From an uncultured Actinomycetes bacterium (lineage in GTDB: Bacteria; Actinomycetota; UBA4738; JBBDTT01): a stretch of DNA of 64,000 bases. Below, piece after piece: positions 40,227 through 56,148 of this stretch (the stretch's first letter is position 1; each line of letters starts with the position of its first letter). The position numbers and the translations under genes are program-made. The stretch is from assembly GCA_963742735.1 (NCBI GenBank), contig CAVUMN010000003.1:192001-256000 (forward strand), read 5' to 3'. The notes beneath the pieces were generated by a model that saw nothing but the letters and a program-made list of their open reading frames with translations, was not told the origin of the DNA and did no database searches.

Positions 40227-40931
40227 CTATCGATTCGGGCTGCCGGTGATCAGATAGACCATCACGTAGTGACAGGCGGTCGCGACGACCACGAAGACGT
40301 GCCAGATCTCGTGGTACCCGAAGGAGGCCGGCCACGGATCGGGCCGCTTGCGAGCCAGGACGAGGGACCCGACGGCGCTGAGACCCAGCCCCACGAGTCC
40401 GAGCTGGGCTTCCGTCGGCGTCAGCCTCTCGAGGAGCGGGGGGATGATGAACAGGGCCAGTGCGCTCAGGAAGGAGTACAGGAAGGCTCCGAACGCCCTG
40501 ACCGTGTCGAATCGCGTGAGCTTCAGCGTGATCCCCAGGGCCGCACCGCCCCACTCGATGCCGAGCACGATCCAGCGGAGCCAGCCGTCGAGGGCGATCA
40601 GGGCGACGGGCGTGTACGAGGCCGCGATCATCACGTAGATCATCGAGTGGTCGATCCGCTGGATCGATCGGATCCCTCCGAGTCGCCAGGCGCCTCGGTG
40701 GTGGCCCGCGCTGCTCAGATACATGCAGGTGAACGCGGTCGCGAACACCGCGGCGGCGAACTGGCCGGCGGTCCCCCGGGCGTGCAGCACGAGGATCACC
40801 CCCGCCGGGATGGATACGTAGACCCACGTCTGGTGGAGCCGCCCTCGATGCCGGGGCTTGCCGTGAAGTCGGTCGGCCACGGAGACCACCGCGACCGCCT
40901 GATCCGCCGGGGTCTCGCCCCCGTCCGTCAC
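40227..40931 (-). CDS. Hemolysin III / PAQR-family membrane protein (start uncertain)
   Basis: KPRHRGRLH, SAGHH, RIDHSMIY..IAASYTP, PDPWP..FGYHEIWH..V..A..CHY. Confidence 0.9.
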   Translation of the reverse strand: MTDGGETPADQAVAVVSVADRLHGKPRHRGRLHQTWVYVSIPAGVILVLHARGTAGQFAAAVFATAFTCMYLSSAGHHRGAWRLGGIRSIQRIDHSMIYVMIAASYTPVALIALDGWLRWIVLGIEWGGAALGITLKLTRFDTVRAFGAFLYSFLSALALFIIPPLLERLTPTEAQLGLVGLGLSAVGSLVLARKRPDPWPASFGYHEIWHVFVVVATACHYVMVYLITGSPNR

Positions 40932-40945
40932 CTCCGGGCGGGGCG

Positions 40946-42367
40946 TTACGAGTTGCCTTCGGCGAGCCACCGCAGCGCACCGATGCTCGGCTGGAACAGA
41001 TACTCGCCACCGCGACATTCGGTGAAGCTCGGCTGGGGGTGGAGGAAGAAGGGCGGGTTCCCGGGGATCGTCATCTTGTCGTTCTCGTCGTCCGGCTCAC
41101 CGATCAGGAAGTCTCGGTCCTTGCCCACGCCGAGCGCGTCGCCGTCGTCGACCCAGAACGCCTGGATCGTCTCGAACTGCCGCTCGATGCTCGTGCAGAA
41201 GCACACGAAAGCCAGTCCGCGCTCCTGGCCGTCATCCTCCAGGGCGCCCTCCGCCAGGGGCGGTCCGTACGACCTCCCTCGCCGGATGATGCGGTGGCGC
41301 CGGGTGAGCTCGCCGCCGTAGAACTCGCGCGAGTCGCGAGGATTGGCCCGCCGGATGTGCGCGCCGAGCGGGCAGCGGAGCCCCTGGTCGTCCGGCTCGT
41401 AGGTGAAGTCGTTGATCCGGTTGGGATCGCCCGAGATCGCGGGGTCCGGCCGGTCGGGCGAGAGCTCGAGCGGGGTTCCGTCGCGCCACCGGCCGACGAT
41501 CTTCGCCGCGAGCATCTCGGGACCACCCGGATAGGCCTTCCCCTTCTCCTCGAGGTAGGAGCGGAATCCGGCGACGTTCGTGGCGAGCTTGCGAAACACC
41601 ATGAAGGTGGCGTTGCGGTCGAACGGGGCGGCCGGGGCGGCGGGGATGCCCTTGTCCTCGTCCACGTACCCGAACACGAAGTCGCCCGTGGCCAGGGCGC
41701 GCCAGCGACCCTTGCCCGTCGGGTGGCCGTCTCCCGGCCGTGGGGTCACGCCGCTTCCCTCGATGGCCGGCTGGGAGATTCCGTCGATGAAGCCGAAGTG
41801 GTCTCGCCCGCCGGGCAAGGCCTCCGCGCGCTGCTCGAAGAGGACCGTCGTCGATCCCGAGGACTGTCCGATCTGGTGCAGCTGATCGCGGCGCGCGTCC
41901 AGCCGTTCGTCGTCGACCGCGTACACCGTCACCAGCGCGTGGACCTCGCCGCTCCCCAGGCCCGGATCCCAGCGCTCCGGCGCGCTCGGCCCTCGGTCGC
42001 CGAGGCGAGCCGCCCGCGCGGCCATGCCCTCGCGAAACTCCGGCGGGAACGTCTCCAGGATGGCATCGGACACCCCGAGCGCCTGCAACCCGGCATAGGT
42101 GAAGGCAACCTGCATGGCGGTTGGAGGAGGGTCGCCGGTCCACGGCTCGGCCGTGGTGATCTGGGGCAGCATCCCGCGCAGCAGCTCCCGCGCGCGATCG
42201 GGGTGGTCGATGCGAAGGAAGACGTACGCCGCTGTCGGGTAGGTGTAGCCGCGGAGGACGTTGCCCTGCAGGTCGGCCAGGTCGACGTTCGCGGTCTCGC
42301 CCTCGCGAACGGGGAGGTCCGGCGGCCGTCGAACGGGCTCGGTCTTCGTCTGCCCCTGATCAGCCAT
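40946..42367 (-). CDS. DyP-type peroxidase, copy 1
   Basis: DLQGNVL, FGFIDGISQP (GxxDG), proximal His AHIRRANPR, distal Arg IIRRGRSY. Confidence 0.92.
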   Translation of the reverse strand: MADQGQTKTEPVRRPPDLPVREGETANVDLADLQGNVLRGYTYPTAAYVFLRIDHPDRARELLRGMLPQITTAEPWTGDPPPTAMQVAFTYAGLQALGVSDAILETFPPEFREGMAARAARLGDRGPSAPERWDPGLGSGEVHALVTVYAVDDERLDARRDQLHQIGQSSGSTTVLFEQRAEALPGGRDHFGFIDGISQPAIEGSGVTPRPGDGHPTGKGRWRALATGDFVFGYVDEDKGIPAAPAAPFDRNATFMVFRKLATNVAGFRSYLEEKGKAYPGGPEMLAAKIVGRWRDGTPLELSPDRPDPAISGDPNRINDFTYEPDDQGLRCPLGAHIRRANPRDSREFYGGELTRRHRIIRRGRSYGPPLAEGALEDDGQERGLAFVCFCTSIERQFETIQAFWVDDGDALGVGKDRDFLIGEPDDENDKMTIPGNPPFFLHPQPSFTECRGGEYLFQPSIGALRWLAEGNS

Positions 42368-42921
42368 CAGCTCTGTCCCTCCCCGAAGGTGGCGTAGAAG
42401 CGTCGATGCAGTTCCTCGGCGTCCAGACCCTGCGCCGCGATCGCGAAGTCGACGACTCGCCGCCGGGCGTCGAGGCTCTCCAGGACCTCCGGAACCGACC
42501 CCTGAAAGCTCGAGGCGAACGACGACGAGAGCAGCTGGTGAGCGCGCATGTAGCGCTTGAATGCGATGCGGTCTGAGGTCCCGGGATAGCCGATGCAGTG
42601 GCTCCACCACGAGTCCGCCTCCGCGGGAAGCCGCTCGCAGATCGCGTCGAGGAAGGCCTCGGCGTCGCCGCTGATCGTGGCCGTGAACACCATGTAGTTC
42701 GTGGTCAGGTGGTCCGGCTTCACCTTGGGTCCCGGATGCACCAGGTGGTCGAAGATCTGCAGGCGCGAATAGTGGAGCTGTTCGAGCCGCGCCAGCGGGC
42801 TGGCTTCCCCCCACGCGAGCGCGTCGATGGCCTCGCGCGCGGCGGTCTCGTGACCGGGGGTCACGGGCGCGAAGACGGTGAGCGCGTAGTGGACCCCGTC
42901 CTTGTTCCCCCGCTCACCCAT
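42367..42921 (-). CDS. DyP-associated hypothetical protein B1
   Basis: LTVFAPV...LHYSR...FLDAIC...WW..C.GYPG; TGATG overlaps on both sides; paralog at 51942. Confidence 0.85.
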   Translation of the reverse strand: MGERGNKDGVHYALTVFAPVTPGHETAAREAIDALAWGEASPLARLEQLHYSRLQIFDHLVHPGPKVKPDHLTTNYMVFTATISGDAEAFLDAICERLPAEADSWWSHCIGYPGTSDRIAFKRYMRAHQLLSSSFASSFQGSVPEVLESLDARRRVVDFAIAAQGLDAEELHRRFYATFGEGQS

Positions 42922-43532
42922 CAGAGCGACCTCTGGTAGGTGGTGAGGAACCGGTCGTACGCCGTCTTGAACTCCGCCGGGCTCAGCCCGCGACCCTCCG
43001 CCTTCAGGGCCTCGAGACCGGTGCGGACCCGTAGCGCGTCCCGGACGATCTCCGGGCTCGCCTCGGGGTAGGCGGCGTAGTAGTGGCCGCCCTCCATGCT
43101 GTTGCGGGCGATCCAGGCCTTCAGCGGCTCGGCCGGGGGCGGCTTCGGGAAGTGGAAGCCCCGTCCCCACACGAACCCGATCACCTGAGGGATCACGTAG
43201 GCGAACGCGTCGATGTAGTTCTGCCACGACTGGTCGAAGTGCGCCTCGAAGAAGATGTAGTTGTAGTTGAGCTTGGTGTGGTCCTTCGGATCACCGACGT
43301 TGGGCATCGTCTTCTTGAGCACCGCCGTGCGCATGAAGGCGATCCGCCCCACGACGACCAGGCGCTTGTTCAGCTTCGGGAAGTACTTCGCCAGCCACAG
43401 CACCACCCTCAGGGGGCGCACCCACGCCGGCCGGACCGGCGTGTACAGGGAGAGCCCGGTCATGCGCCCGATCGTGTTGCCGGGAACGGGACCCGCGTTG
43501 CGCGGGAGTGGACTCGTCAGGGCCTGCGCCAT
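42921..43532 (-). CDS. DyP-associated hypothetical protein A1
   Basis: LNY.Y.FFE..FD...YIDAFAYV.P...WG.GF.FPKPPP..AYPEA; GGAGG RBS; paralog at 51319. Confidence 0.85.
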   Translation of the reverse strand: MAQALTSPLPRNAGPVPGNTIGRMTGLSLYTPVRPAWVRPLRVVLWLAKYFPKLNKRLVVVGRIAFMRTAVLKKTMPNVGDPKDHTKLNYNYIFFEAHFDQSWQNYIDAFAYVIPQVIGFVWGRGFHFPKPPPAEPLKAWIARNSMEGGHYYAAYPEASPEIVRDALRVRTGLEALKAEGRGLSPAEFKTAYDRFLTTYQRSL

Positions 43533-43536
43533 CGAT

Positions 43537-44994
43537 CTACCTCCCCCATAGTTGCTTGCCTTCCACCTGCCGGCGCGCGTGATTCGGGTTGCCGAACCGC
43601 TCGTAGTACTCGAGCTCGAGATGCGAGAACTGTGTCCAGATGCCCGGAAGGTAGAACGCGTCGGTGTGCGCGGGGAACCGTCCGTACGTCTCGTACAGAT
43701 AGCGACAGATCTCCTTGGCGTACTTGATCGCTTCCGGCGGATGCGGCTTGGCGTTGCGGAGGTAGGTCTCCGCGCTGTCGCGATCCTTGTACGCCAGACC
43801 GAACATCTCGACGTCCCCGTAGATCCCCTTCGGGCCCATCTTCTCCTCCAGGAGCTGGTCGACGGCCGCATCCATGTCCGTGACGTACGGTGGGCACAAT
43901 CCCTCGAGCACGCCGTCGATCCCGACGTAGTTCGGCTGCGAGGCCGGAACCGGCGGCATCCGGCGCCAGCGCCCCTTCGGCGTCTTGGTGGTGTGCTGTC
44001 GGAAGCCCAGTCCGAGCGCCTGGTTCTCGGGATCGCGCTGCATGATGTGCGGGGCCAGGGGAGCGCTGTGCACCCAGCCGCCCAGGCGGAGGGCCTCGCC
44101 GGTCAGCAGCAGGTTCTGCAGCAGCAGGAACGCCTCGTAGTCGGTGCGCGCCGAGCCGAGGGCCCCCATGGGCACGGGCACGTCGGTGGTGACGAATCCT
44201 CCCTTGACCCGCTTGATGCCGCCGATCGGCTGGTAGGGGATCGGGTCGACGAACCCCAGCTTGGCGGCGGCCCACGCAATGCGCTCGACGGGGCCCTTCG
44301 GATGGAACTTCCGCCAGTCATCGACGAAGAGCGGTGCGGCACCCGGCTGCTCCGAAAGCAGGATCAGGAGCGCGTTGATGTACTGCCGGGTGTTGTCGAC
44401 GACCGGCAGGAAGCACGTGGTGCCCGGCGCGTTGGAGTGGTGGGCGTTCCAACCCAGGTAGTAGGGCCACCGGCGCGGGAACGTCATCCGCTCCTCGTGG
44501 ACCTTCACCTTGACCAGGTTCGCGTAGGTGAGCCAGTCGTCCTCGGTGCGGTCCTCCCACCGGCGGGGAATCTGCCGGAAGATCTCCAGGGCGTCCCGGC
44601 CCCACGGGCGCCGCAGGAGCCAGATGCCCTCGTCGTTGATCATGAACATCGTGGTCGCCTGGGCGTTGTCCGGGCTCGGGCCGGCCCGGCCGACGGGATG
44701 CATCATCGACATGCCCATCTCCGGGAAGCCGTCCAACCGGAACAGCGGGCCGTCGTTCATGATCGGCCCCGTCGGCCCCGTGGCGGCGATGAGGATCGCC
44801 TCCTCGAGCGGGGTGACGGGTGACGGCGGATTGGCGCTCTCGTACGTCATCGGCCCGGCGGGCAGCGAGACCCCTTGCGCCACCCGTCGTGTTCGGCGGT
44901 CCTGGAGCGCCTCGGTCAACGGGTAGCTGAAGAGGTCCTGGAGGCCGGCATGGGCCGCCGGTCCGGAGGCCGGGCGCGCGTTCGCTGGATCCAT
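43537..44994 (-). CDS. Large hypothetical protein, tentatively nitroreductase-like fold
   Basis: 486-aa ORF with host-like codon use; LTEALQDRRTRR, GPSPDNAQ and LLQNLLLTGEALRLGGW resemble nitroreductase FMN-binding segments. Confidence 0.7.
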   Translation of the reverse strand: MDPANARPASGPAAHAGLQDLFSYPLTEALQDRRTRRVAQGVSLPAGPMTYESANPPSPVTPLEEAILIAATGPTGPIMNDGPLFRLDGFPEMGMSMMHPVGRAGPSPDNAQATTMFMINDEGIWLLRRPWGRDALEIFRQIPRRWEDRTEDDWLTYANLVKVKVHEERMTFPRRWPYYLGWNAHHSNAPGTTCFLPVVDNTRQYINALLILLSEQPGAAPLFVDDWRKFHPKGPVERIAWAAAKLGFVDPIPYQPIGGIKRVKGGFVTTDVPVPMGALGSARTDYEAFLLLQNLLLTGEALRLGGWVHSAPLAPHIMQRDPENQALGLGFRQHTTKTPKGRWRRMPPVPASQPNYVGIDGVLEGLCPPYVTDMDAAVDQLLEEKMGPKGIYGDVEMFGLAYKDRDSAETYLRNAKPHPPEAIKYAKEICRYLYETYGRFPAHTDAFYLPGIWTQFSHLELEYYERFGNPNHARRQVEGKQLWGR

Positions 44995-45223
44995 CAATGC
45001 GGGAGCTGCCCCTGTGGCGGGCGCTCGGTCTGGAACGTGCTCGGGCCGCTACGGGGCGCCACAGTCAATCCGGACCCTTCGTCTCGAGAGTAACGATCGG
45101 AAGAAATCTATCGGCGATCTGGGCCCGCGCGCAAGCGCGCGACCCGCCCCCGGGGACGGCTAGCGGTCGCCTGCGCCTGCGTGATACAAGGACCGACGAG
45201 TCCGACGAAACCAACATGAAGGG

Positions 45224-46303
45224 ATGTGGATGAGCGTGAGCGGCGCCCCGGCGCCCTGGACGGGTGCCGCCCCCGAGCACCCGCAGCGACCGCTTCGGCT
45301 CGACGCCCCGCGCCCTCTGGGCGTGACGACGTCGGACGGGTATCGGGTGGGCCTCACCCGCTACTCGGGGGGATCGAAGGGGCCGGTCATGCTGGCTCCC
45401 GGCTTCGGCACCACCACCTACGGGTTCGTCCTCGACACCGTGGAGACGAACCTCACGGAATTCCTGGTCGCGGAGGGATACGACGTCTGGCTTTTCGACT
45501 ACCGGGCCAGTCCCGCGCTGGACTCCGCCGACCAGCCGTACTCGGTCGACGACATCGCCCTGCGCGACTGGCCCGCCGCGGTCGACACCGTGCGCGCCGA
45601 GACCGGAGCCGACAGCGTCCAGGTCGTGGCGCACTGCGTCGGATCGATCTCCTTCCTGATGGCGAAGCTCGGGGGCCTCGAGGGAGTTCGGTCGGCGGTG
45701 TCCTCCGCGCTCACGACGCACCCGGCGCCGCCCACGTCGCTCGCCCTGAAGACCGGCCTGCACTTCTCCTCCTTCCTCGAGGGGGCGGGGGTCGACACGA
45801 TCACCACCGACTACGAGGGCGACTGGGACGACCGGGTGATCGATCGACTCATGCACGCGTATCCCACGCAGGAGCGCTGCGAGCTCCCGGAGTGCCGGCG
45901 GATCCTGTTCATCTACGGCGAGGTCTTCGACCACGACCAGCTGAACACCGCGACCCATCAGGCGGTCCCGGAGATGTTCGGGATGGCGAGCCTGAGCCCG
46001 TTCCGCCACCTGGCCCGCATCATGCGCAAGGGGCACGTCGTGAACACGGAGGGGGAGGAGACCTACCTCACACACCTCGACCGGCTGGCGTTCCCCCTGA
46101 CGTTCATCCACGGGGCGAACAACCGGATGTTCCTCCCCGAGGGGACCAAGAACACGTACGACATCGTCAGGGAAGCCAACGGCGACCACTGGTACAAGCA
46201 CCACGTGATCCCCGGCTACTCCCACATGGACGCGTTCATCGGCAAGGACGCCTCCCGCGACGTCTTCCCGCTGATCCTGCAGGAGCTCGCCGAGCACCAG
46301 TGA
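45224..46303 (+). CDS. Alpha/beta hydrolase with a Cys at the nucleophile elbow
   Basis: GPVMLAPG, GYDVWLFDYRAS, VAHCVGS, GYSHMD; colinear with the C-terminal domain of 47694-51101. Confidence 0.88.
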   Translation: MWMSVSGAPAPWTGAAPEHPQRPLRLDAPRPLGVTTSDGYRVGLTRYSGGSKGPVMLAPGFGTTTYGFVLDTVETNLTEFLVAEGYDVWLFDYRASPALDSADQPYSVDDIALRDWPAAVDTVRAETGADSVQVVAHCVGSISFLMAKLGGLEGVRSAVSSALTTHPAPPTSLALKTGLHFSSFLEGAGVDTITTDYEGDWDDRVIDRLMHAYPTQERCELPECRRILFIYGEVFDHDQLNTATHQAVPEMFGMASLSPFRHLARIMRKGHVVNTEGEETYLTHLDRLAFPLTFIHGANNRMFLPEGTKNTYDIVREANGDHWYKHHVIPGYSHMDAFIGKDASRDVFPLILQELAEHQ

Positions 46304-46310
46304 CGTGGAG

Positions 46311-46330
46311 GCCCCGCCGGGGGGCGGGGT
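46311..46330. terminator. Hairpin between convergent genes
   Basis: gccccgcc-gggg-ggcggggt. Confidence 0.5.
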
Positions 46331-46343
46331 GCGCGGCGGCCCG

Positions 46344-47683
46344 TCAGCCGATCTCGTGCGTGCTCAGGTCGTTGATCGTGCCGGTCCAGGCCTCGAACGC
46401 GGGGGCGCCCTTCACGAGCTGTGACCCCGCGTGCTCACCCTCCCGGTAGAAGATCGTGTACGTCAGGCTCTTCCAGCTGAGCCAGTCGTCACCCGCGTCC
46501 CCCTGCCGGTGGACCGGACGCCACGTGCCCGTGTTGATGTAGATGCGCTCGTGGTCGTTCGGAGGGTCGCCGACGAAGCCGACCGGCCGCACGTCGGCCG
46601 CGTGGGTGTGTCCGTACACGACGTACAGCACGCGGCCGGCGGTCTCGACGTCGCGATCCAGGCGACGGAACTCCTCGACCGCCTTTTGGCCGAACGCCAC
46701 CTCCTGCTTCAGCTCCGCCTGGTCGATCCCCTTCAGGGAACGGTCGAACTTGGTGAACTTGAGGACCTGCAGGGCCTTCATCAAGATCTGGAGCCGGTCG
46801 GCCCGGTCGAACGGGTTCGACATGCGGTCGTGCTTGTCGAACCAGCCCTTCACGAACGGAACGCTCTCGAAATCGTCCGCGGCCCCGCGCATGGCCTCGT
46901 TCAGCATCGCCTTGACGTCCTCGTCGAAGCGGTCCGTGTGGTAGCCGAGCCAGTGGATAAGCGACATCATCGGCCGCACGTCGAAGAGGTTCTGGAACTT
47001 GTGGTACAGCCCGATGCGGTCGGGGTGGTCCTCGGGCATCACCTCCAGCACCTTCAGCGGCAGCTTCGAGGCCATCTCGCTGGCCAGCAGGTCGCCGATG
47101 GGGATCTTCATGTAGTCCTCGAACGGGATCTGGACGTGGTCGCGGATGCTGAACGCGTCGCTCTCCTCGAAGTTGAACGGGTCCCACTCCTGGCCGTGGC
47201 GGGCATACACGCCGTAGTCGAGGTCCAGGAACGTGTGGTCGAACGGAGCGTCGCTCGGAGGGATGCCGAAAACCTCCCGCGCGCGGACCCGGAGCGTCGG
47301 ATACAGGTTGACGAGCCGGTCGTGGTTGCCGGGGACGAAGACGCGCTCGGGCTCCACCGGAAAGTCGAACTGCTCGCCAAGGCTCCCCTGGAAGATGTCG
47401 AAGGTCGCCTTGTTCTCCGAGACCACGCTCTCGAACACCTTCGTCACCGCCTCCAGGGAGGGGTTCCCCCCCACGGGCGCTCCTCGGGATCGATCGTGAA
47501 CCACTGCTCCGTTCGGATCAGGTCGAAGATGTCGCCGAGGAACACGATCTTGATGTCCTTGGCGCCGGCCTCCCGGGCCTTGGTACCCAGGTCGCGGAAG
47601 ATCCGCTGAAACACGTCGACGCCCAGGTAGTGCTGACCGCTCGACCCGTCCATGAGATGGAGATCGCTGACGATGATGAGCAC
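46344..47683 (-). pseudogene. Calcineurin-like metallophosphoesterase split by a frameshift in a G7 run (47466-47472)
   Basis: GTG 47683 with GGAGG RBS. SDLH and GDIFD lie in one frame; GNHD, HG, GHTH and NTGTW lie in another. One extra G joins them (PWGG-NP). Confidence 0.85.
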
Positions 47684-47693
47684 GCTGTCCTCC

Positions 47694-50600
47694 CTACTCC
47701 TGTTCCAGTGCCTGGAGCACGATCGGGTACACGTTCTTGGCGGCGCCCTCGCCGATGAGGACATCTGCATGACCATTGCCGGGGATCAGGTGCCGGCTGA
47801 CCCGCGCGGCCGGGTTCCCCTGCAGGAGCGTCTCCACGGTCGTGGCGCTGCCCTCGGGGAGGAACACGACGTCCTCCTCGCCGTGCACGAACGTGAGGGG
47901 CAACCCGAGCCGGTCGAGGTGGGGGAGGTAGACGTCCTCTCCGGTCGCCGAGACGAGCCGTCCCCGCGCGGCCATCAGGCCGAGGTGGTCGAGCAGCGTG
48001 GGATCGGGTGCTCCGTACAGCTCCGCCAGGGCGCCGTGGGTCGCCGGCGCCAGGCCCGTGTGTGAGAACTGTGGCCCGTAGAGGACCGAGATCCTGGCGC
48101 ACGCAGGGCTGCCACAGTCGTCCGCCGCATCCCGGCCGAGCGTGGCGCCCGCCGCGTCGATCAGGGGGATCCACCCGCCACGATCCACGCCCAGCATCGC
48201 CGACGCGGAGTCGGCCTGAAGCGTCTGAAGGGCCGCGGGGACGAACAGGCCGCCCCGGGCGCCGTCGCCCGTGACCGCGGGGTGAGCGCTCGCGCCGATC
48301 ACCACGGCGGCGCGCACTCCCTCGGTCCCTCCGAGCAGGCTCATGAGCAGGGTGAGCCCGCCGGCGCCGTGGCCGACCGCCTGCACGCTGGCGGCGGCGG
48401 TGCGGCTCAGGACCTCCTGGATCGCGGCGGGCCAGTCCTGCGTCGCGACGTCGTCCGCGTTCGAGGCGTCGCGGGCCCCGGGGAGGATCACGCTGTCCCG
48501 CCAGTCCAGGAGCCAGACGTCGAACTTGTGGGCCACCAGGTACTCGACCAGGTTGGGCTGCACGGTGTCCAGGGCGAACACCCGGCTCCACGTCCCCACG
48601 TCGTGGGCGAGGATCACCGGGCCGCGGGTCCCTCCCTCGAACCGGGTCAGACGCAGCCCGACGCCGGCGTCCGATCGGACGGGGAACACCTCGGGGGTCG
48701 GAGCCCGAAGCGGTCGCAGCTTGCGCGGCGGGACGTCGGGGTCGAGGAAGGACGCGCGGGGGGGCCGGTCCTTGCCGCCCCCGAACCCCAGGTAGACGTG
48801 GGCCAGCTCGCCCATGAAGAACCGGATGAACTTCGTCTGGGTCTCCAGGCGTTCGACGATCGAGCCGGTGTTGATCGCGACCGTGCCCTGCATCTGGCGC
48901 AGGAAGTCGAGGGGCGCGATCTTCAGCAGTCCGCGGCCGGCGAGCGGCGCCGCGTCGTCCTCACCGTCGTAGACGGAGATGTACAGGGTGGTCGTGTCGG
49001 CCCAGGTGTCCGGCCCCGGGTCGTCGCGGACCACCTTGTAGCCGTCGAAGAACAGGCGGCGGCCCTCCTCGGTGGACAGGTGCATGCGATACCGCATCTC
49101 CCGTCCCCGGCCGCGTTCCGGATCCGGGGCCAGCAGGTTGAACTCCCCCTTGGTCACGGCGATCGGGTCGCGGGAGAGATGGGGAGCGACGACGGAGCCC
49201 ACGATCTGGGCGGCGTGGCGGTCGTCGCCCAGGAGCCCGTCGAGGTCCTGGCTGGCGATCGTCAGCGTGAACTCGAAGGAGGACCCGTTCGCCTCGCCCT
49301 GCGCGGCTCCCTCCGCGTAGTCGTCGATCGGGAGCGTGGACACATGGCCGTGCATCCGCTCCGTGAACCGGACCCCGGGCTTGCGGGCGGGCGGCGCGGC
49401 GCGCGGCGCCGGTGGCTCGGCGGGCTCCGTCCAGCCGCGCTCGGAGGTGAGCAGGGCCACCGATCGTTCGGCCACCGCCGAGATCGTGAACGAGGGGTTG
49501 ATCCCGAGCGAGCGCGGCACCACCGACCCGTCGCAAACCAGGAGCGAGTCGTACACCGCGTCACCCTCTCCCGTGAACACCTGGCCGCGGTGGTTCACCG
49601 CACCCGTCGAGGCGTCCTCGCCCATGGGGCACCCGCCCAGCGGATGCACGGTGACCAGGTCGTGCCCCAGGAGGCCGCTCCAGACCGGGTTCCGGATGTA
49701 CCGGCCGCCGTTCGCCTCGGCGGCGCGGCGCATGACGTCGTCCAGCCGCGCCCATCGGGCCTGCTCTCCCACGCCCGGCCACACGACCCGCGACCGGTCG
49801 TCGTCCAGGACGATGCGGCCGCCGGCGTCGTCGTGCGCCATGACCAGGTAGATCTGCGAGTGGTTCACGGAGCCGGAGTACGGACCGTTCACCAGGCTGT
49901 CGAGCTCGTGCTGCGTCTCGACGGGCGAGGCCGCGCCGGGGGTCACATCGACACCGGCGGTCCGCGCCGCGAGGGCGAACGCCTCCGGCAGCGCGCCGGC
50001 CAGCGCCCCGGGGATGACTCCCTCCTGGACGATCAACCCCTGGTCCAGCTCGGGCTGCTCGCGGAGGTCGATCACGCCCGTGATGCAGGGACCCACCGGC
50101 TCTCGGCCCGCCGGGCTCTGCGAGCCGAACCCGACGGCGTTCACCGGCTGCTCCCCGTTGTAGGCGAACCCGATCAGGTCACCGTTCCCGGAGAACCTCG
50201 ACCCGACGGCCGACGAGAGGGGGAGCCCGCGATCCCGCGAGCGAAGGAGGATCTCCGTCGAGCCGAGCGTGCCGGCGCCGAGCACGACCACGCCGGCCCG
50301 GACGAAGAGCTCCGGCGCGTGGAACCGCTCCCGTCCGGCCTGCATGGGCTGGTAGTGGACCAGCCAGCCGTCGTCGGACCGCTCGAGGGACCGCACCGCC
50401 GCCTGCGTGAAGATGTCCGCGCCGTGCGCGTAGGCGTCCGGCAGATAGTTCATGAGCGTCGTGCTCTTGGCGGCGTAGTTGCATCCCGAGACGCAGTCGC
50501 CGCACAGCATGCATGCGCTCTGCTGGACCCCAACGGGGTTGGGACCGTCCTCGTACCGCACGTTGATCGGCGTGCGGGCGAACGGCGCCCCCAGGTGCGC

Positions 50601-51101
50601 CGCGGAGCGCTCGAGGGCCTCCAGCTTCAGCAGCCGCGGCCAGTCCGCGGGAAAGGCCCCCGGGGTGAGCATCGCCTCGGCGCGCCGGTAGCCCTGCTCC
50701 AGGCCTCCCTCGACGTCGGCCCGGAACGCTTCCGGCCACTCGGGGGCCTGCAGCACCCGGGGCTCGGGGCGCATGTAGACGTTGGCGTTGATGAGGGAGG
50801 TCCCCCCCAGGCCGCACCCCACCAGGACGTGCATGTCCTGGTTGGCATGGAAGTCGAACATTCCGACGTGGGAACCGATATGGCCGGCGGGGGCGTCGAG
50901 CTGAAACTCGAGGGCCGCCTCCAGCTGCGTGTCGGGGTACTCGCCGGGCCGGATCTCTCTGCCGCGCTCGAGGACGCAGACCCGCCGCCCGGCGCGTGCC
51001 AGCCGAGAAGCGGCGATGCCTCCACCGTAGCCGGACCCCACGACGACGACGTCGTAGCGGTCCCCGATGTTCTGGAGCGGAGAGGAGATCGCCGAGATCA
51101 T
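47694..51101 (-). CDS. GMC oxidoreductase (cholesterol oxidase-like) fused to a central domain and a degenerate alpha/beta hydrolase
   Basis: VVGSGYGG, LGGTSLIN, CMLCGDCVSGC, TVHPLGG, DGS..P..LGINP..TI; C-terminal hydrolase has GHGAGG. Confidence 0.92.
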   Translation of the reverse strand: MISAISSPLQNIGDRYDVVVVGSGYGGGIAASRLARAGRRVCVLERGREIRPGEYPDTQLEAALEFQLDAPAGHIGSHVGMFDFHANQDMHVLVGCGLGGTSLINANVYMRPEPRVLQAPEWPEAFRADVEGGLEQGYRRAEAMLTPGAFPADWPRLLKLEALERSAAHLGAPFARTPINVRYEDGPNPVGVQQSACMLCGDCVSGCNYAAKSTTLMNYLPDAYAHGADIFTQAAVRSLERSDDGWLVHYQPMQAGRERFHAPELFVRAGVVVLGAGTLGSTEILLRSRDRGLPLSSAVGSRFSGNGDLIGFAYNGEQPVNAVGFGSQSPAGREPVGPCITGVIDLREQPELDQGLIVQEGVIPGALAGALPEAFALAARTAGVDVTPGAASPVETQHELDSLVNGPYSGSVNHSQIYLVMAHDDAGGRIVLDDDRSRVVWPGVGEQARWARLDDVMRRAAEANGGRYIRNPVWSGLLGHDLVTVHPLGGCPMGEDASTGAVNHRGQVFTGEGDAVYDSLLVCDGSVVPRSLGINPSFTISAVAERSVALLTSERGWTEPAEPPAPRAAPPARKPGVRFTERMHGHVSTLPIDDYAEGAAQGEANGSSFEFTLTIASQDLDGLLGDDRHAAQIVGSVVAPHLSRDPIAVTKGEFNLLAPDPERGRGREMRYRMHLSTEEGRRLFFDGYKVVRDDPGPDTWADTTTLYISVYDGEDDAAPLAGRGLLKIAPLDFLRQMQGTVAINTGSIVERLETQTKFIRFFMGELAHVYLGFGGGKDRPPRASFLDPDVPPRKLRPLRAPTPEVFPVRSDAGVGLRLTRFEGGTRGPVILAHDVGTWSRVFALDTVQPNLVEYLVAHKFDVWLLDWRDSVILPGARDASNADDVATQDWPAAIQEVLSRTAAASVQAVGHGAGGLTLLMSLLGGTEGVRAAVVIGASAHPAVTGDGARGGLFVPAALQTLQADSASAMLGVDRGGWIPLIDAAGATLGRDAADDCGSPACARISVLYGPQFSHTGLAPATHGALAELYGAPDPTLLDHLGLMAARGRLVSATGEDVYLPHLDRLGLPLTFVHGEEDVVFLPEGSATTVETLLQGNPAARVSRHLIPGNGHADVLIGEGAAKNVYPIVLQALEQE

Positions 51102-51158
51102 GGGCCCTCACAGACGTGGGGCGTGCAGTGGTGGGCTGGGGCGAGCATGTGGGTCCGA

Positions 51159-51282
51159 AGCCTGAAGGGCAGCCCTCGTACCTGTCAAGAGTTGCGGAGT
51201 GGACACCCGCGGACCGTCGAGTTCCGACTCGGGACCCAGGCGAAGTGGCACCTTGTCAGTCCCTCCGGACGCGTAGGACAAT
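51159..51282. promoter_or_regulatory. Back-to-back housekeeping-type promoters
   Basis: Minus strand TTGACA-N18-CAGGCT (51188-51159); plus strand TTGTCA-N18-GACAAT (51253-51282). Confidence 0.45.
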
Positions 51283-51318
51283 GCGCCGCCAGGGCAGCGC
51301 AACCGCAGGAAGGGACCG

Positions 51319-51942
51319 ATGAAGCGTCAACCCGCCGCTCCTCCCGGCCCCGGCCGGGCAGCCGAGCCGTCCTCGCGTCGCCGCCGCAACCCCCTGAGCA
51401 GGCTCACCAGCGTGCAGGGGTTCACGCCGATCCGTCCCGCCCTGCTCCCGGTGGTTCGGCCGCAGATGTTCCTGGTCCGCTACCTGCTGCCCCTGCAGAA
51501 GCGAGCCCTCAAGGTGGGCAAGGTCCACTTCATGCGCTTCGTGGTCATGCGGGAGCTTCCCCACGCCGGCGGGAAGGAGATGAGCCAGCGGCTGAACTAT
51601 CCCTACGTCTTCTTCGAGAGCTACTTCGACGGCGAGCTGGGCCACTATCTCGACGCCTTCGCCTACGTGTTCCCGGTCGTGCTCATCCAGGCCTGGGGAG
51701 CCGGGTTCGACTTCCCCAAGCCGCCCCCCTCGGAGCCGATGAAGGCCTGGGTCACTCGCAACATGCTTCGGGGCGCCCACACGTACTCCGCGTACCCGGA
51801 GGCGACCGTCCAGATGGTGCGGGCCTCGCTGAACGTCCGCGACCGCCTCCGGGAGCTCCTCAGGACCGCTCCCGGCCTGAGCCCCGGAGCCTTCAAGGCG
51901 GCGTACGAGGAGTTCCTGACCGATCTGCAGGGCGATCTGTAG
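51319..51942 (+). CDS. DyP-associated hypothetical protein A2
   Basis: Paralog of 42921-43532 (LNYPYVFFESYFD, YLDAFAYV, GFDFPKPPP, AYPEA). Confidence 0.85.
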   Translation: MKRQPAAPPGPGRAAEPSSRRRRNPLSRLTSVQGFTPIRPALLPVVRPQMFLVRYLLPLQKRALKVGKVHFMRFVVMRELPHAGGKEMSQRLNYPYVFFESYFDGELGHYLDAFAYVFPVVLIQAWGAGFDFPKPPPSEPMKAWVTRNMLRGAHTYSAYPEATVQMVRASLNVRDRLRELLRTAPGLSPGAFKAAYEEFLTDLQGDL

Positions 51943-52499
51943 TGGGCGAGCGTCGCAACCGCCGCGGGATCCACTACGGGCTCACCGTGTTCACGCCGAT
52001 CGCCGAGGGCAAGGAGGCCGAGGTTCGGGCGCGGATCGAGTCCCTGCAGCCCGACGAGGACAGCCCGTTGGCCGGCCTCGACTCCCTGCACTTCGCGCGC
52101 CTCGTGATCATGGACCGCATCAACGCGTTCGGGCCGAAGCAGAAGAAGCCCGACACCCTGAAGTACCCCTACCTGGTGTTCACCGCCGTCTTCGACGGCG
52201 ACCTCGACCGGTTCCTGGACGCGATCTGCGACCGCATCCCCGATGCGGCCGACGACTGGTGGGGCGCCTGCGTGGGGTACCCCGGGACCTCCGACCGCCG
52301 GGCGTTCGCCGACTACATCCGAGCGCACCAGATCGACGCGGCCGTGTTCGAGGGGGCCGAGCAGAAGTCCACCGTGGCCGAGCGTCTCGCCAGCCTGGAT
52401 CTGCGGGACCGGGTCATCCGGTTCGCCGGCGAGGGACAGTCGCTCGACCCGGCCGCGCTCAAGGAGCGCTTCCTGGCCTCGTTCGCGGGAGACGCATGA
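51942..52499 (+). CDS. DyP-associated hypothetical protein B2
   Basis: 3' end of ORF 48282-52499; GTG in a TAGTG overlap; paralog of 42367-42921 (FLDAIC, C.GYPGTSDR..F..Y.RAHQ). Confidence 0.85.
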   Translation: MGERRNRRGIHYGLTVFTPIAEGKEAEVRARIESLQPDEDSPLAGLDSLHFARLVIMDRINAFGPKQKKPDTLKYPYLVFTAVFDGDLDRFLDAICDRIPDAADDWWGACVGYPGTSDRRAFADYIRAHQIDAAVFEGAEQKSTVAERLASLDLRDRVIRFAGEGQSLDPAALKERFLASFAGDA

Positions 52500-53908
52500 G
52501 CGAGGCGACGCCGACTCGGCTCGAGGGCCGGCCTCCCGAGCTGGGGCGGCGCCCGCCCGAGCCGGCCGCGGTCGACCTTGCCGATCTGCAGGGCAACGTC
52601 CTTCGCGGCTACACGTACCCGACCGCCGCCTACATCTTTCTGCGCATCGACGACCCCGCCCGGGCCCGGACCCTCCTCGGCTCGATGCTGCCGCAGGTGA
52701 CCACGGCCGAGCCGTGGTCGAACGGGGGGCCGCACACCGCCATGCAGGTCGCGTTCACCAACACGGGACTGCAGGCGCTCGGCGTGTCGGAGAGCATCCT
52801 CGAGACGTTTCCGCCGGAGTTCCGCGAGGGGATGGCCGCCCGAGCGGAGCTCCTGGGCGATCGTGGCCCCTCGGCGCCCGAGCGATGGGACCCGGGGTTG
52901 GGCACCGGCGAGGCGCACGTCCTGGTGACCGTCTACGCGGACGACGACGCGCATCTCCAGGAACGGCGGGCGCAGCTCCACGAGATCGGCCAGGCCGCCG
53001 GCGCGTCGACGGTCGTCCACGAGCAGCGTGCCGCGGCCCTGCCCGGAGGGCGGGATCAGTTCGGATTCTTCGACGGGATCGCCCAGCCGGACGTCCGGGG
53101 CAACGGGGTCCAGGCGCGGCCGGGGGACGGCCACCCGAACGGCAAGGGGCGGTGGCGGTCGCTGGCCACCGGCGAGTTCCTCCACGGCTACCCCGACGAG
53201 GACGGTGGGCTCCCCGCCGCCCCGGCGGCCCCGCTCGATCGCAACGGGACGTTCGCGGTGTACCGCAAGCTCGCGACGGACGTCGCCGGGTTCCGTGCCT
53301 ACCTCCATGAGCGCGGGCAGCACTATCCGGGTGGAGCGGAGATGCTCGCGGCCAAGATCGTCGGCCGCTGGCCGGACGGCACCCCGCTGGAGCTCTCTCC
53401 GGACCGGCCCGACGCGGCGATCTCCGGCGATCCGAACCGGATCAACGACTTCACCTACGCCGACGACGACGCCGGTCTCCGATGCCCCGTGGGCGCGCAC
53501 ATCCGCCGTGTGAACCCTCGCGAGTCCAAGGGGTTCTTCGACGGCGCGCTCAGCCTGCGGCACCGCATCATCCGACGCGGCCGCCCCTACGGGCCCGCGC
53601 TCCCGGAGGGGGCCCTCGAGGACGACGGCCAGGACCGCGGGCTCGTCTTCGTCTGCTTCGAGGCGAGCATCGCGAGGCAGTTCGAGATCATCCAGGCCCT
53701 GTGGATCGACGACGGGGATCCGTTCGGCCTGGGTCGGGACCGAGACTTCTTCGTCGGCCAGCCGGAGGGAGACGACGGCAAGATGACGATCCCCGGACGC
53801 CCGCCGTTCTTCCTGACGCCCCAGCCGGGGTTCGTGACGTGCCGGGGCGGCGAATACCTCTACCAGCCGAGCCTGACGGGCCTCCGCTGGCTCGCCGAGG
53901 GGGGCTGA
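52496..53908 (+). CDS. DyP-type peroxidase, copy 2
   Basis: FGFFDGIAQP, AHIRRVNPR, IIRRGRPY; ATGA overlap with the upstream gene. Confidence 0.92.
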   Translation: MSEATPTRLEGRPPELGRRPPEPAAVDLADLQGNVLRGYTYPTAAYIFLRIDDPARARTLLGSMLPQVTTAEPWSNGGPHTAMQVAFTNTGLQALGVSESILETFPPEFREGMAARAELLGDRGPSAPERWDPGLGTGEAHVLVTVYADDDAHLQERRAQLHEIGQAAGASTVVHEQRAAALPGGRDQFGFFDGIAQPDVRGNGVQARPGDGHPNGKGRWRSLATGEFLHGYPDEDGGLPAAPAAPLDRNGTFAVYRKLATDVAGFRAYLHERGQHYPGGAEMLAAKIVGRWPDGTPLELSPDRPDAAISGDPNRINDFTYADDDAGLRCPVGAHIRRVNPRESKGFFDGALSLRHRIIRRGRPYGPALPEGALEDDGQDRGLVFVCFEASIARQFEIIQALWIDDGDPFGLGRDRDFFVGQPEGDDGKMTIPGRPPFFLTPQPGFVTCRGGEYLYQPSLTGLRWLAEGG

Positions 53909-53914
53909 CCCGAG

Positions 53915-54802
53915 CTACTTCGTGCGCCCGGCCTTGTCGTCGAAGGCCTGGCCGGTCGCGCCGAGGACGCCGGCCAGCAGGTTCGTCAGCTCCATCGGGA
54001 TGACGAACTTCGTGGACGGTGACAGGCCGATCTGCTTGAGGGCCTCCAGGTACTGAAGGCTCATCGTGTTCGCGTCGATCCCCTTCGCCGTCTCGAAGAT
54101 CTTCTGCAGCGCGAGCGCGAAGCCCTCGGCCTGCAGGATCGCGGCCTGACGAAGACCCTGGGCGTTGAGGATCGCGGCGTCCTTGTTGCCCTCGGCGATG
54201 GTGACCGCGGCCTCGCGCGTGCCCTCGGCCTCGGTGACCACGGCCCGCCGGGTTCGCTCGGCGGACATCTGACGGGTCATCGCGTCCAGGACGTCGGGCG
54301 GGGGCAGGATCTCGCGGACCTCGACGTTCGTCACCTTCACGCCCCATCGCTCGGTGACCTCGTCGAGCTTCGCGCGCAGCGTCTCGTTGATCTGGTCGCG
54401 CTTGGCCAGCACATCGTCCAGGGACATGTCGCCGACCACGCTCCGCAGGGTCGTGGCCGCGATCGACTGGGCGGCGCCGGCGAAGTTCTGGACCTGGATC
54501 ACGCTCATCGCCGGGTCGACGACCTTGTAGAAGACGATGAAGTCGATGTTGATCGAGGCGTTGTCCTTCGTGATCGCGGTCTGCGAGGGGATCTCCAGGT
54601 AGAACTCGCGCAGGTCGACCCACACGCCCTTGTCCACGATGGGGATCAGGATCACCAGGCCCGGGCCCTTCGTCCCGATGGCCCGGCCCAAGCGAAACAC
54701 CATCAGCCGCTGGTACTCGGGGACGACCTTCAGCGCCGCGCGCAGGAACAGCAGCACGAACAGGACGACGACGCCGATGATGATCAGGCTGGTCGGACTC
54801 AT
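53915..54802 (-). CDS. SPFH/band 7 (stomatin-like) protein
   Basis: FRLGR...GPGL, ITKDN, TTLRSVVG, WGVKV..VE, QM.AER.RRA. Confidence 0.95.
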   Translation of the reverse strand: MSPTSLIIIGVVVLFVLLFLRAALKVVPEYQRLMVFRLGRAIGTKGPGLVILIPIVDKGVWVDLREFYLEIPSQTAITKDNASINIDFIVFYKVVDPAMSVIQVQNFAGAAQSIAATTLRSVVGDMSLDDVLAKRDQINETLRAKLDEVTERWGVKVTNVEVREILPPPDVLDAMTRQMSAERTRRAVVTEAEGTREAAVTIAEGNKDAAILNAQGLRQAAILQAEGFALALQKIFETAKGIDANTMSLQYLEALKQIGLSPSTKFVIPMELTNLLAGVLGATGQAFDDKAGRTK

Positions 54803-56148
54803 CAGGTTTCGCTTCCTCTCTTGGCCGGGGCGGGCTCCGCCGCCTCGTCGGTCTCCGCCGGCTCGACCTCGAGCCGAAGGCTGTTCACGGCGCGGACCCG
54901 CACCGGCGCGCCCTTGGGGATCGCCGCTCCGTTGGTGTAGGCGCTCCAGGACTCGCCGCGGACCCGGACGTTGCCGCCCTGGGCGATGCGCGTCTCGGCG
55001 ACGCCGACCGAGCCGATCAGCGCCTCCTGTCCGGCCTCGACCGGCAGGCGCCGGGCCTCCAGGACCTTCTTGACGGTGAACCCGAAGAACAGCGCGAGGA
55101 GCACCGCCACGGCGCCGATCATCGGGATCGACACGCGGGCGTTCGGCACGCTCGAGTCGAACAGGAACAGCCCGCCCAGGATCAGCGTGACCAGGCCGAT
55201 GCCGGTCGCGGCTCCCGTTCCCGGCGCCTTGAGGTCCACGAAGAACGAGATCGCCGAGATCGCGAGCAGGACGAGGCCCACGACCGTGACCGGGAGCTGG
55301 CCCAGCGCGATGAACGACGCAGCGATCATCAGCAGGCCCAGCACGCCGGGCACCGAGACCCCCGGGTGCAGCGCCTCGACGATCAGCAGGATGAGCCCCA
55401 GGAAGAAGAACAGGAAGGCCAGGTCCGGCGTCAGCAGACCGTGCAGGATCGACGCCCCGAGCCCCATGTTCCGCTCGACGACGATTGCGCCGGCGGTGAA
55501 CAGGGTCACCGTCTCGCCGGCCGCAACCTCGACCTCGCGGCCATCCGCCGCGGCGAGAAGCTCCGTTCGATCAGGGGCGATGAGGTCGATCACGTCCAGT
55601 TCGAGAGCCTCCTCGGCGGTGGCGCTGACCGACTGCCTCACCGCGCGCTCCGCCCAGTCGGCGTTGCGGCCGCGTGCCTCGGCGAGAGATCTGATGTACG
55701 CCGCCGCGTCGTTCTCGGCCTTCTGCGACTCGATCACGCCCGACACGCCGACGGGGTGGGCGGCACCGACGTTCGTTCCGGGAGCCATCGCCGCGAGCGG
55801 ACAGGCGATCAGGATGAACGCCCCGGCGCTCGCCGCCCGCGCTCCCTGCGGTCCAACCCAGCAGATCACCGGGACGCGCGAGTTGAGGACCGCCTGGATG
55901 ATGTCGCGCATGGACGAGGACAGCCCGCCCGGCGTGTCGATCGTCAGGAGGATCGCCTCGTTGCCCGCGGCTTCCGCGTCATCGATCGCCTCCTGCACGT
56001 AGGAGGCCAGGAACGGGTCCACCACGCCCTCGAGCGAGACCTCCAGGACGGGCGCAGGCTGGCTGCCCTGGGCGGATGCGGTCGAGGAGAGGCCGAGGAT
56101 GCCGGCGAGCAGGAGCACGATCGCGAGCGGGAGGCGAACGCTTCTCAC
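54802..56148 (-). CDS. nfeD: NfeD long form (ClpP-class protease, TM region, OB fold)
   Basis: IDTPGG, RAASAG, TNVGAAHP, ARGRN, V.GESWSA. Confidence 0.93.
   Translation of the reverse strand: MRSVRLPLAIVLLLAGILGLSSTASAQGSQPAPVLEVSLEGVVDPFLASYVQEAIDDAEAAGNEAILLTIDTPGGLSSSMRDIIQAVLNSRVPVICWVGPQGARAASAGAFILIACPLAAMAPGTNVGAAHPVGVSGVIESQKAENDAAAYIRSLAEARGRNADWAERAVRQSVSATAEEALELDVIDLIAPDRTELLAAADGREVEVAAGETVTLFTAGAIVVERNMGLGASILHGLLTPDLAFLFFFLGLILLIVEALHPGVSVPGVLGLLMIAASFIALGQLPVTVVGLVLLAISAISFFVDLKAPGTGAATGIGLVTLILGGLFLFDSSVPNARVSIPMIGAVAVLLALFFGFTVKKVLEARRLPVEAGQEALIGSVGVAETRIAQGGNVRVRGESWSAYTNGAAIPKGAPVRVRAVNSLRLEVEPAETDEAAEPAPAKRGSET

Follow-up and report, generated by a model that had tools for sequence, protein, structure and literature searches.

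A Two-Part Barrel Protein as a Probable Subunit of a Clade of Class V DyP Peroxidases

We analyzed a 64,000-nucleotide stretch of DNA from an uncultured Actinomycetes bacterium (assembly GCA_963742735.1, contig CAVUMN010000003.1, positions 192,001 to 256,000), which we refer to as the window. It contains two operons that each encode two small proteins, designated A and B, followed by a dye-decolorizing peroxidase (DyP): A1-B1-DyP1 on the minus strand and A2-B2-DyP2 on the plus strand. One large clade of DyPs nearly always carries this dedicated partner family, for which there is no Pfam or NCBIfam model. The probable explanation, in our judgment, is that A and B form a heterodimeric barrel of the antibiotic biosynthesis monooxygenase (ABM) type, which acts as a dedicated, probably stoichiometric, substrate-presenting subunit of a cytoplasmic class V (C-type) DyP clade. 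The case combines observed homology, fold, gene fusions, and synteny with predicted binding and a predicted interface, and we infer in addition the substrate-presenting role and a link to lipids.

The partner family and its link to DyP

The window is about 70% G+C, so genes were mapped by combining codon-position G+C with open reading frames (ORFs). On the minus strand are A1 (42921-43532, 203 amino acids), B1 (42367-42921, 184 amino acids), and DyP1 (40946-42367, 473 amino acids). On the plus strand are A2 (51319-51942, 207 amino acids), B2 (51942-52499, 185 amino acids), and DyP2 (52496-53908, 470 amino acids). Stop and start codons overlap within both cassettes (TGATG, TGATG, TAGTG, and ATGA), and A1 and A2 are each preceded by a purine-rich stretch. 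Therefore, the cassettes are translationally coupled operons. The four partner-family copies in the window are the only ones in the host genome (3.08 Mb in five contigs, 88.9% complete). The original prediction, which was made from this DNA alone, gave the range 42367-52499. This covers both A/B pairs but also takes in four or five unrelated intervening genes.

The four proteins had been described as mutually homologous, and BLASTP bore this out. A1 and A2 are 46% identical (E 3e-60) and B1 and B2 are 52% identical (E 3e-63), with lower identity between A2 and B2 (29%, E 2e-20) and between A1 and B1 (19%, E 0.002). By these sequence comparisons, A and B are homologous, and we take them to be paralogous halves. 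All of the motifs that had been quoted are present in a four-way alignment: TxFTP, H(F/Y)xR, FDG, and LDA in common, FPKPPP and AYPEA in the A type, and WWxxCxGYPGTSDR and RAHQ in the B type. B1, for example, has the His/Arg motif as HYSR, the Asp as SGD, and the Cys as HCIGYPG (match to a family profile, E 6.3e-72; A1 matches at E 1.6e-60). The alanine that replaces this His in A1 is also seen in the alignment, but it is not special. The position varies across 50 A-type proteins, with His in 20, Glu in 19, Lys in 5, Arg in 3, and Tyr in 2.

The description of these proteins as unannotated was also correct. A1, A2, B1, and B2 matched no Pfam family at E≤0.01, the ABM profile included, and no NCBIfam family. 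Their relatives are labeled "hypothetical protein" in RefSeq and had no Pfam match at E≤1 apart from a chance-level one to pectate lyase. A PDB sequence search with the family profile gave only chance-level matches to designed repeat proteins, and B2 fell only into "hypothetical protein" clusters in the ESM Atlas. As far as literature searches showed, the family has not been described.

DyP1 and DyP2 were identified as peroxidases by TIGR01413 (114.8 and 102.7 bits against a cut-off of 100.5) and by Pfam DyP_N (59.9 and 62.2 bits against a cut-off of 27.5). DyP1, a class V (C/D-type) enzyme with Pfam DyP_N and Dyp_perox_C domains, has no N-terminal Tat-like signal by eye; DyP2 is also class V. 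Both contain the motifs FGFIDG or FGFFDG, GAHIRR, and RHRIIRRG. The heme-site residues of DyP2 are D193 in the GXXDG motif, the proximal histidine H335, and the distal arginine R360. Among 50 DyPs, F189, G190, D193, G194, and R360 are invariant and H335 is nearly so. W403, in an RQFExxQxxW segment, is also nearly invariant, and it aligns with Trp377 of AauDyP from Auricularia, reported to be a solvent-exposed site of high-turnover oxidation in the accessible text of PMC7961821. Identities were compared with a recent duplication or a separate acquisition of the two cassettes in mind. DyP1 and DyP2 (73% identical) each have the other as best match, and the A and B copies (45 to 50% identical between the cassettes) differ from one another about as much as from those in other genomes.

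The closest solved relative of DyP1 and DyP2 is DrDyP of Deinococcus radiodurans (PDB 8RE2/8RE3, E 2e-88), and the heme-site motifs of DyP2 align with those of DrDyP. DrDyP was reported to be inactive with H2O2 at physiological pH (7.5), with low-spin heme as the cause, and its authors ask what its substrates and activating events are (PMC10820274). The catalase-like protein encoded next to it, DR_A0146, was reported to have no catalase activity in a review (PMC6300522). The partner gene upstream of the DrDyP gene is mentioned in the accessible text of neither paper.

To follow the gene order in other bacteria, species-representative genomes were scanned with the B-type motif, which yielded 80 loci. 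These come from Thermoleophilia, Acidimicrobiia, Frankia, Gemmatimonadaceae, Acidobacteriaceae, Dormibacterota, Rhodanobacteraceae, and Acetobacteraceae (phyla Actinomycetota, Gemmatimonadota, Acidobacteriota, Dormibacterota, and Pseudomonadota). An A-type gene was directly upstream of B in 79 of the 80, the exception beginning at a contig end (L054). A gene for a DyP1/2-like protein was directly downstream of B on the same strand in 78; of the other two loci, one is at a contig end (L079), and in the other the DyP gene is divergent (L022). Because these loci were picked by the B-type motif, they sample one subfamily, a weakness of this evidence, and so we sampled more widely.

Within the window's own order, one of 60 genomes had a partner-family match. 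In other genomes of the phylum, 9 of 400, including one unpublished genome, had a match at E≤1e-5. Seven remote matches from six of those genomes were all directly beside a DyP1-like gene (E 1e-65 to 1e-113). A search with DyP2 also found 77 plasmid records, 40 of which were listed and were cross-matched by hand to the positions of partner-family genes, with a profile scan in addition. A partner-family gene was within about 1.6 kb of the DyP gene in 38 of these 40. Most often it was immediately upstream; one record had it downstream, and in some there was one gene in between. An A/B pair is present on Granulicella tundricola pACIX901, and Nostoc, Streptomyces, and Sinorhizobium have single partner genes. 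Homologs of A and B are thus usually found with a DyP in all three samples (78/80 loci, 7/7 remote matches, and 38/40 listed plasmids); context was sampled for roughly 130 of the 3907 family representatives described below, chosen in ways that favor DyP-linked members. Together with A-B-DyP fusions and the predicted interface, the gene order upholds the tight link to DyP that had been proposed.

D. radiodurans provides an example from a well-studied species (NZ_OV024759.1, 3915-8141). A divergent TetR gene is followed by genes for a 3-hydroxyacyl-CoA dehydrogenase, a hypothetical protein, DyP, and a catalase family protein. The hypothetical protein has 243 amino acids and matches the partner family (E 2.6e-20), and its gene ends 2 bp before the DyP gene. 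The dehydrogenase, partner, DyP, and catalase-like genes apparently form an operon. On a Sinorhizobium chiapasense plasmid, a protein of the NIPSNAP family, another alpha+beta barrel family, is encoded downstream of DyP (L109, 6362-7273). A second, weaker partner-family match (171 amino acids, E 8e-8) is also downstream of this DyP, and hemA is upstream.

We estimated the size of the family by an exhaustive search with a profile built from a 33-sequence alignment of A and B. There were 3907 cluster representatives at E≤1e-3, 2291 at E≤1e-10, and 550 at E≤1e-30. A word-indexed search, which gave 39 matches for B2 and 6 for A2 with the query counted in each, badly undercounted the family. The best 148 of the 3907 representatives (150 listed, minus the two from the window) were then classified with separate A-type and B-type profiles. 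B alone accounted for 64 and A alone for 6. A-B fusions numbered 62, with another 9 having a C-terminal extension, which in three of the nine contains DyP domains. The reverse order, B-A, occurred in three proteins and, with an N-terminal extension, in one more; three had odd arrangements.

Some of these proteins are also fused to heme enzymes. A Pfam scan of 18 long or fused representatives found DyP_N and Dyp_perox_C in three (P0050, P0052, and P0071), weak Catalase matches in three, and no Pfam domain in 12. The extra domains of seven representatives (P0101, P0062, P0148, P0058, P0083, P0078, and P0140) were all homologous to the 361-amino-acid "catalase family protein" of D. radiodurans (E 2.4e-7 to 5.7e-33). 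A Rhizobium leguminosarum plasmid encodes a 998-amino-acid x-partner-DyP fusion annotated as "hypothetical protein" (L114, 2972-5968). A plasmid of Sulfitobacter sp. SK025 encodes a 1620-amino-acid P450-partner-DyP fusion annotated as "cytochrome P450" (L112, 2685-7547).

Fold, conserved residues, and a predicted complex

B2 was modeled by AF2 with the family alignment as input, at a mean predicted local distance difference test score (pLDDT) of 88. Residues 8-142 of the model form an ABM-type ferredoxin-like unit, and two C-terminal helices follow. Foldseek matched the model to ABM proteins at probabilities of 0.93-0.99 with a best E of 0.02, and by itself it gave no match at E≤0.001. The structure search VIA gave a Z-score of 9.0 to WhiE-ORFI and of 6 to 7.7 to many ABM proteins, mutarotases, TcmI, IsdG, and MhuD. 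In the model, therefore, B2 has a beta-alpha-beta-beta-alpha-beta ferredoxin-like core of the ABM-type dimeric alpha+beta-barrel superfamily. The TcmI-type cyclase 1tuw (Z 6.6 for B2 and 4.8 for a natural fusion) is within the general ABM background.

The natural A-B fusion P0049, modeled with 56 fusions as the alignment, reached a pLDDT of 93 and a predicted template modeling score (pTM) of 0.91. Both of its domains align to tandem-ABM chains: WhiE-ORFI (9lmn) at Z 14.9 over 218 residues, 9ltx at Z 11.8, 3mcs at Z 10.7, and 3f44 at Z 10.2. In this model, the A-B fusion is a tandem-ABM pseudo-dimer with the two units in one barrel. These results agree with the ferredoxin-like alpha-beta barrel that had been suggested for the family. 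The accompanying suggestion of an A/B heterodimer also gained support. The 62 fusions among the best 148 representatives and the confident tandem-barrel model establish A plus B as a unit, and the separate chains would pair as a heterodimer.

The two halves differ in what they conserve. In 50 B-type proteins, H50, R53, W107, and C110 were each present in all 50, GYPG was invariant, and D85 was present in 48. A second His was at position 109 in 46 of them, and B2 itself has Ala109. The invariant set in 50 A-type proteins was Y96, F99, F103, Y110, D112, W126, P133, P137, and K142. In the 56 A-B fusions, the only invariant residues were one Tyr in the A half and His and Arg in the B half. The single-type relatives keep the His-x-x-Arg motif and an Asp-rich motif, and they have neither the Cys nor the second His. 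This pattern suggests that A may be a degenerate docking half and that B is the likely ligand-binding or catalytic half.

We then predicted a three-chain complex of A2, B2, and DyP2, using a 50-row alignment for each chain taken from the same loci and DyP2 as the scored partner. The complex score was 0.88 in all three runs versus 0.16 for the best of three controls. For calibration, 116 of 157 solved complexes and 2 of 215 mismatched pairs came up to the mark, which holds only roughly here because this job used its own alignments and three chains. The runs agreed in at least 65% of contacts, and the pLDDT of the partner was at least 87. We know of no solved A-B-DyP complex, and no protein in the PDB is related to the family by sequence, so it is unlikely that the predictor reproduced a structure it had already seen.

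Most of the predicted contacts come from A2 (residues 24-28, 65-66, 104, 112-113, 116-117, 136-139, 161-169, and 197-207). Of these, residues 136-139 are within FPKPPP, 161-169 are AYPEA and what follows it, and 197-207 are the last helix. B2 contributes residues 159-167. On DyP2, the contacts are in 326-355, 398-414, and 429-441. H335 and R360 bracket the first of these stretches, and the second surrounds W403. The A-B barrel is therefore predicted to dock onto DyP mainly through A-specific motifs, around W403. A stoichiometric DyP subunit was one of the roles first proposed for A and B. The predicted interface favors it, and physical binding is at the stage of prediction.

Possible roles of the barrel

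The substrate-presenting subunit that we favor would work as follows. FPKPPP, AYPEA, and the last helix of A would sit on the heme-bearing C-terminal domain of DyP, where they would cover the loop that connects the proximal His with the distal Arg, together with the conserved RQFExxQxxW segment that includes W403. B, with its invariant His-x-x-Arg, Trp, and Cys-x-Gly-Tyr-Pro-Gly and its near-invariant Asp, would bind a ligand or catalyze a reaction. The barrel may then hold the physiological substrate, which is probably hydrophobic and possibly lipid derived, or a radical-accepting site, next to the long-range oxidation route of DyP. The real enzyme would be a three-protein complex.

Several observations weigh against this explanation. 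The complex is a prediction, and its score covers the position of DyP only. Two of the 40 listed DyP plasmids, both from Streptomyces, had no detectable partner within 3 kb, so the DyP clade can exist without one. Streptomyces and one Rhizobium have another gene between the partner and DyP, and in R. rosettiformans the partner is downstream of DyP. In some A-B fusions there is a mini-catalase but no DyP. Many relatives, such as those in Nostoc, Streptomyces, Sinorhizobium, and Deinococcus, are encoded by a single gene, and so the A/B split is not universal. Finally, the idea about the substrate rests on the annotation of neighboring genes, which varies between lineages. On balance, we would still place a substrate-presenting or radical-receiving subunit first and a hydroperoxide-forming oxygenase second, with heme binding, pure regulation, and simple co-transcription lower.

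The module is recurrently paired with DyP, a mini-catalase, or a P450, which points to peroxide-linked chemistry on a specific substrate. This raises a broader possibility, which we hold tentatively and would not expect to be right as it stands. The barrel and its heme partner (DyP, a noncatalatic mini-catalase, or P450) might be an unrecognized class of multisubunit peroxide-handling enzymes in which the barrel activates the substrate. It would do so by forming an organic hydroperoxide or by taking an oxidizing equivalent from the DyP surface tryptophan. Such a class would explain why class C DyPs like DrDyP, and also the catalase-like DR_A0146, appear inactive alone.

An oxygenase is an unlikely alternative. 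Here the A/B barrel, either cofactor free like the ABM anthrone oxygenases or metal dependent, would make an organic hydroperoxide, perhaps of a fatty acid, for the attached heme enzyme to convert. Bacteria would then have an equivalent of the fusions of lipoxygenase with allene oxide synthase and of dioxygenase with P450. This would account for the occurrence of one module with three unrelated heme enzymes (DyP, a catalase-like domain, and P450), whether fused to them or encoded next to them, for the invariant His and Arg and near-invariant Asp of B, and for the lipases and P450s that recur nearby. The reported inactivity of DrDyP with H2O2 (PMC10820274) and the reported lack of catalase activity of DR_A0146 (PMC6300522) would fit as well. 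The ABM superfamily includes cofactor-free oxygenases, and the structural matches include an anthrone-oxidase-like protein (5f9p, Z 7.2) and SnoaB and ActVA-Orf6 (Z about 6). However, these Z-scores are no higher than those for isomerases, mutarotases, and decarboxylases, and A and B had no sequence similarity to any known oxygenase in the Pfam, NCBIfam, and PDB sequence searches. Also, the predicted interface is in the surface-Trp region of DyP and not at an evident entry to the heme channel.

We think it improbable that A/B binds heme, whether as a chaperone or store for DyP, as a second redox-active heme site, or as a heme degrader like IsdG or MhuD. IsdG, MhuD, and HmoB have this fold too (Z 6.1-6.5 with B2, 5.4 with the fusion), but these heme-binding proteins match no better than other ABM proteins. 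The IsdG and MhuD heme oxygenases use an Asn-Trp-His catalytic triad. In favor of heme binding, one His and the Cys are invariant in B, position 109 is a second His in 46 of 50 proteins, and a hemA gene is upstream in the Sinorhizobium locus. However, the Cys and the second His are absent from the single-type relatives, and B2 has Ala109. Furthermore, the heme site of these DyPs is already complete, with GXXDG, the proximal His, and the distal Arg, and a permanent fusion to DyP is not expected of a transient chaperone.

We also give little credence to a purely regulatory switch that has no substrate of its own and that activates, inhibits, or gates DyP, for example by shifting six-coordinate low-spin heme to an active state. 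DrDyP invites this idea. It is inactive at pH 7.5 with low-spin heme, its authors ask what activates it (PMC10820274), and its gene has a partner-family gene 2 bp upstream. The loop of DyP that runs from the proximal His to the distal Arg is also among the predicted contacts, and divergence is faster in A/B than in DyP (45 to 50% versus 73% identity between the cassettes). However, a pure regulator would not need invariant His, Arg, and Cys and a near-invariant Asp in a buried-looking barrel, and the fact that the module is fused to three different heme enzymes speaks for a chemical role in common.

It seems doubtful, too, that A/B and DyP are enzymes acting in succession or in parallel in one pathway, co-transcribed but without a stable complex, with the complex score a false positive. 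Operon linkage by itself is no proof of binding, some genomes have an intervening gene or the reversed order, and the complex job differs from its calibration set. Against this, covalent A-B-DyP and partner-DyP fusions recur, stop and start codons overlap, the score of 0.88 compares with 0.16 for the best control, and the A-specific conserved motifs fall in the predicted interface.

On sequence grounds, we rejected a derivation of A/B from DyP domains: hhalign gave a probability of only 0.1% when the A/B profile was compared with DyP2. A and B have no DyP Pfam match, and DyP/Cld chains are absent from the 50 matches listed per VIA search, an absence from a list that does not exclude the fold.

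Neighboring genes and comparison with known systems

Between the cassettes are three genes: abh359, a metallophosphoesterase gene, and a GMC-hydrolase fusion gene. abh359 (45224-46303, plus strand) is divergent from cassette 1 and encodes an alpha/beta hydrolase that resembles acid lipase (gastric lipase 1k8q, E 9.5e-6). The metallophosphoesterase gene is at 46344-47504 (minus strand), and metallophosphoesterase genes also flank the A-B-DyP cluster in two other loci (L034 and L065). The third gene (47694-51101, minus strand) is divergent from cassette 2 and encodes a 1135-amino-acid fusion of a GMC (cholesterol-oxidase-like) oxidoreductase and a C-terminal alpha/beta hydrolase. This hydrolase appears to be related to the free hydrolase at 45224-46303. 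GMC oxidases of the cholesterol-oxidase-like kind usually make H2O2, so the fusion could feed DyP. In three loci of Gemmatimonadaceae (L014, L017, and L020), ORFs that match its C-terminal part (E about 1e-118) directly precede unk486-A-B-DyP.

Cassette 1 starts with unk486 (43537-44997, minus strand), which encodes a 486-amino-acid protein of no known family; searches of Pfam, NCBIfam, and PDB sequences gave no match to it. In 22 of the 80 loci, it is conserved together with A-B-DyP. The ESM Atlas gave a weak lead to nitroreductase, an annotation borne by 16% of the members of one cluster. An acid-lipase-like hydrolase of the abh359 type is encoded in 21 of the 80 loci. A Pfam scan of 93 flanking ORFs found patatin in two loci, GDSL lipase in two, P450 in eight, and many lineage-specific genes. 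In D. radiodurans, the gene that precedes the partner-DyP operon encodes a 3-hydroxyacyl-CoA dehydrogenase. These neighbors give a weak lead to a lipid-derived substrate.

Other features of the region were also recorded. A sigma-70-like promoter match, which is a consensus match only, is upstream of A2 (51253-51282, plus strand). A haemolysin-III-family membrane protein is encoded at 40227-41018 (minus strand; Pfam E 1.8e-31). The longest ORF for this protein runs about 70 bases into the 3' end of DyP1, which makes a true start further downstream probable. A 114-codon frame between the metallophosphoesterase and GMC fusion genes (47444-47785, minus strand) has a coding-like third-position G+C of 0.85. 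Downstream of DyP2 are two membrane-protein genes (53915-56148, minus strand), whose products by eye resemble an SPFH/stomatin-type protein and its NfeD-type partner. In the loci of the closest relatives (L007, L008, L009, L018, and L042), a 373- to 388-amino-acid protein with a C-terminal cupredoxin domain and a CHASE2-adenylate cyclase are encoded downstream of DyP on the opposite strand, which may be lineage synteny only.

The partner family occurs in culturable, named bacteria, including D. radiodurans, Granulicella, Streptomyces, Nostoc, rhizobia, and sphingomonads. Should the partner prove to be a true subunit, the enzyme in published in vitro studies of these DyPs was incomplete. The accessible texts of PMC10820274 and PMC8197335 acknowledge as an open question which substrates and roles cytoplasmic bacterial DyPs have in physiology, and the partner may shed light on the cellular function of these poorly understood enzymes. 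Repeated fusion with DyP, with a catalase-like domain, and with P450 points to a shared peroxide-linked chemistry.

DyPs are reported to work with dedicated partners encoded by adjacent genes in the EfeUOB iron-uptake operon, as encapsulin cargo, and in the pairing of DtpA with GlxA (PMC8197335). Those partners are transporters, shells, and a copper oxidase, whereas here the partner is an ABM-like barrel. Those DyPs are also class I/P or have targeting peptides, whereas the DyPs described here are class V with no obvious signal sequence. The DrDyP system is closer, with a partner-family gene directly before the DyP gene. However, it has a single partner gene rather than an A/B pair, and a catalase-like gene follows in the operon. 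DrDyP was studied as an isolated enzyme, and the words "operon" and "neighbo..." do not occur in the accessible text of the paper (PMC10820274).

The fusions of lipoxygenase to the catalase-related allene oxide synthase, and of dioxygenase to P450, offer a looser parallel. In both, as far as their accessible descriptions go, a non-heme-peroxidase module is fused to a small peroxide-handling heme domain of the catalase-like or P450 kind. The A-B module likewise occurs fused to a catalase-like domain, next to P450 or DyP, or as a part of P450/DyP proteins. However, the A/B module is unrelated to lipoxygenase or to cyclooxygenase-like dioxygenases, and the likeness would be one of arrangement by analogy.

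In fold, the nearest counterparts are the SchA-like tandem ABM proteins of type II polyketide clusters, such as WhiE-ORFI (9lmn) and the decarboxylase Abx(+)O (9ltx). Like A/B, these are small cytoplasmic proteins with a ferredoxin-like beta-alpha-beta core, and as in A-B, two units make one barrel. However, A/B has no detectable sequence similarity to them (no Pfam ABM and no PDB sequence match), and each half has an extra C-terminal helix pair and different conserved residues. The genomic partner also differs, being DyP for A/B and a polyketide synthase for the tandem ABM and SchA-like proteins.

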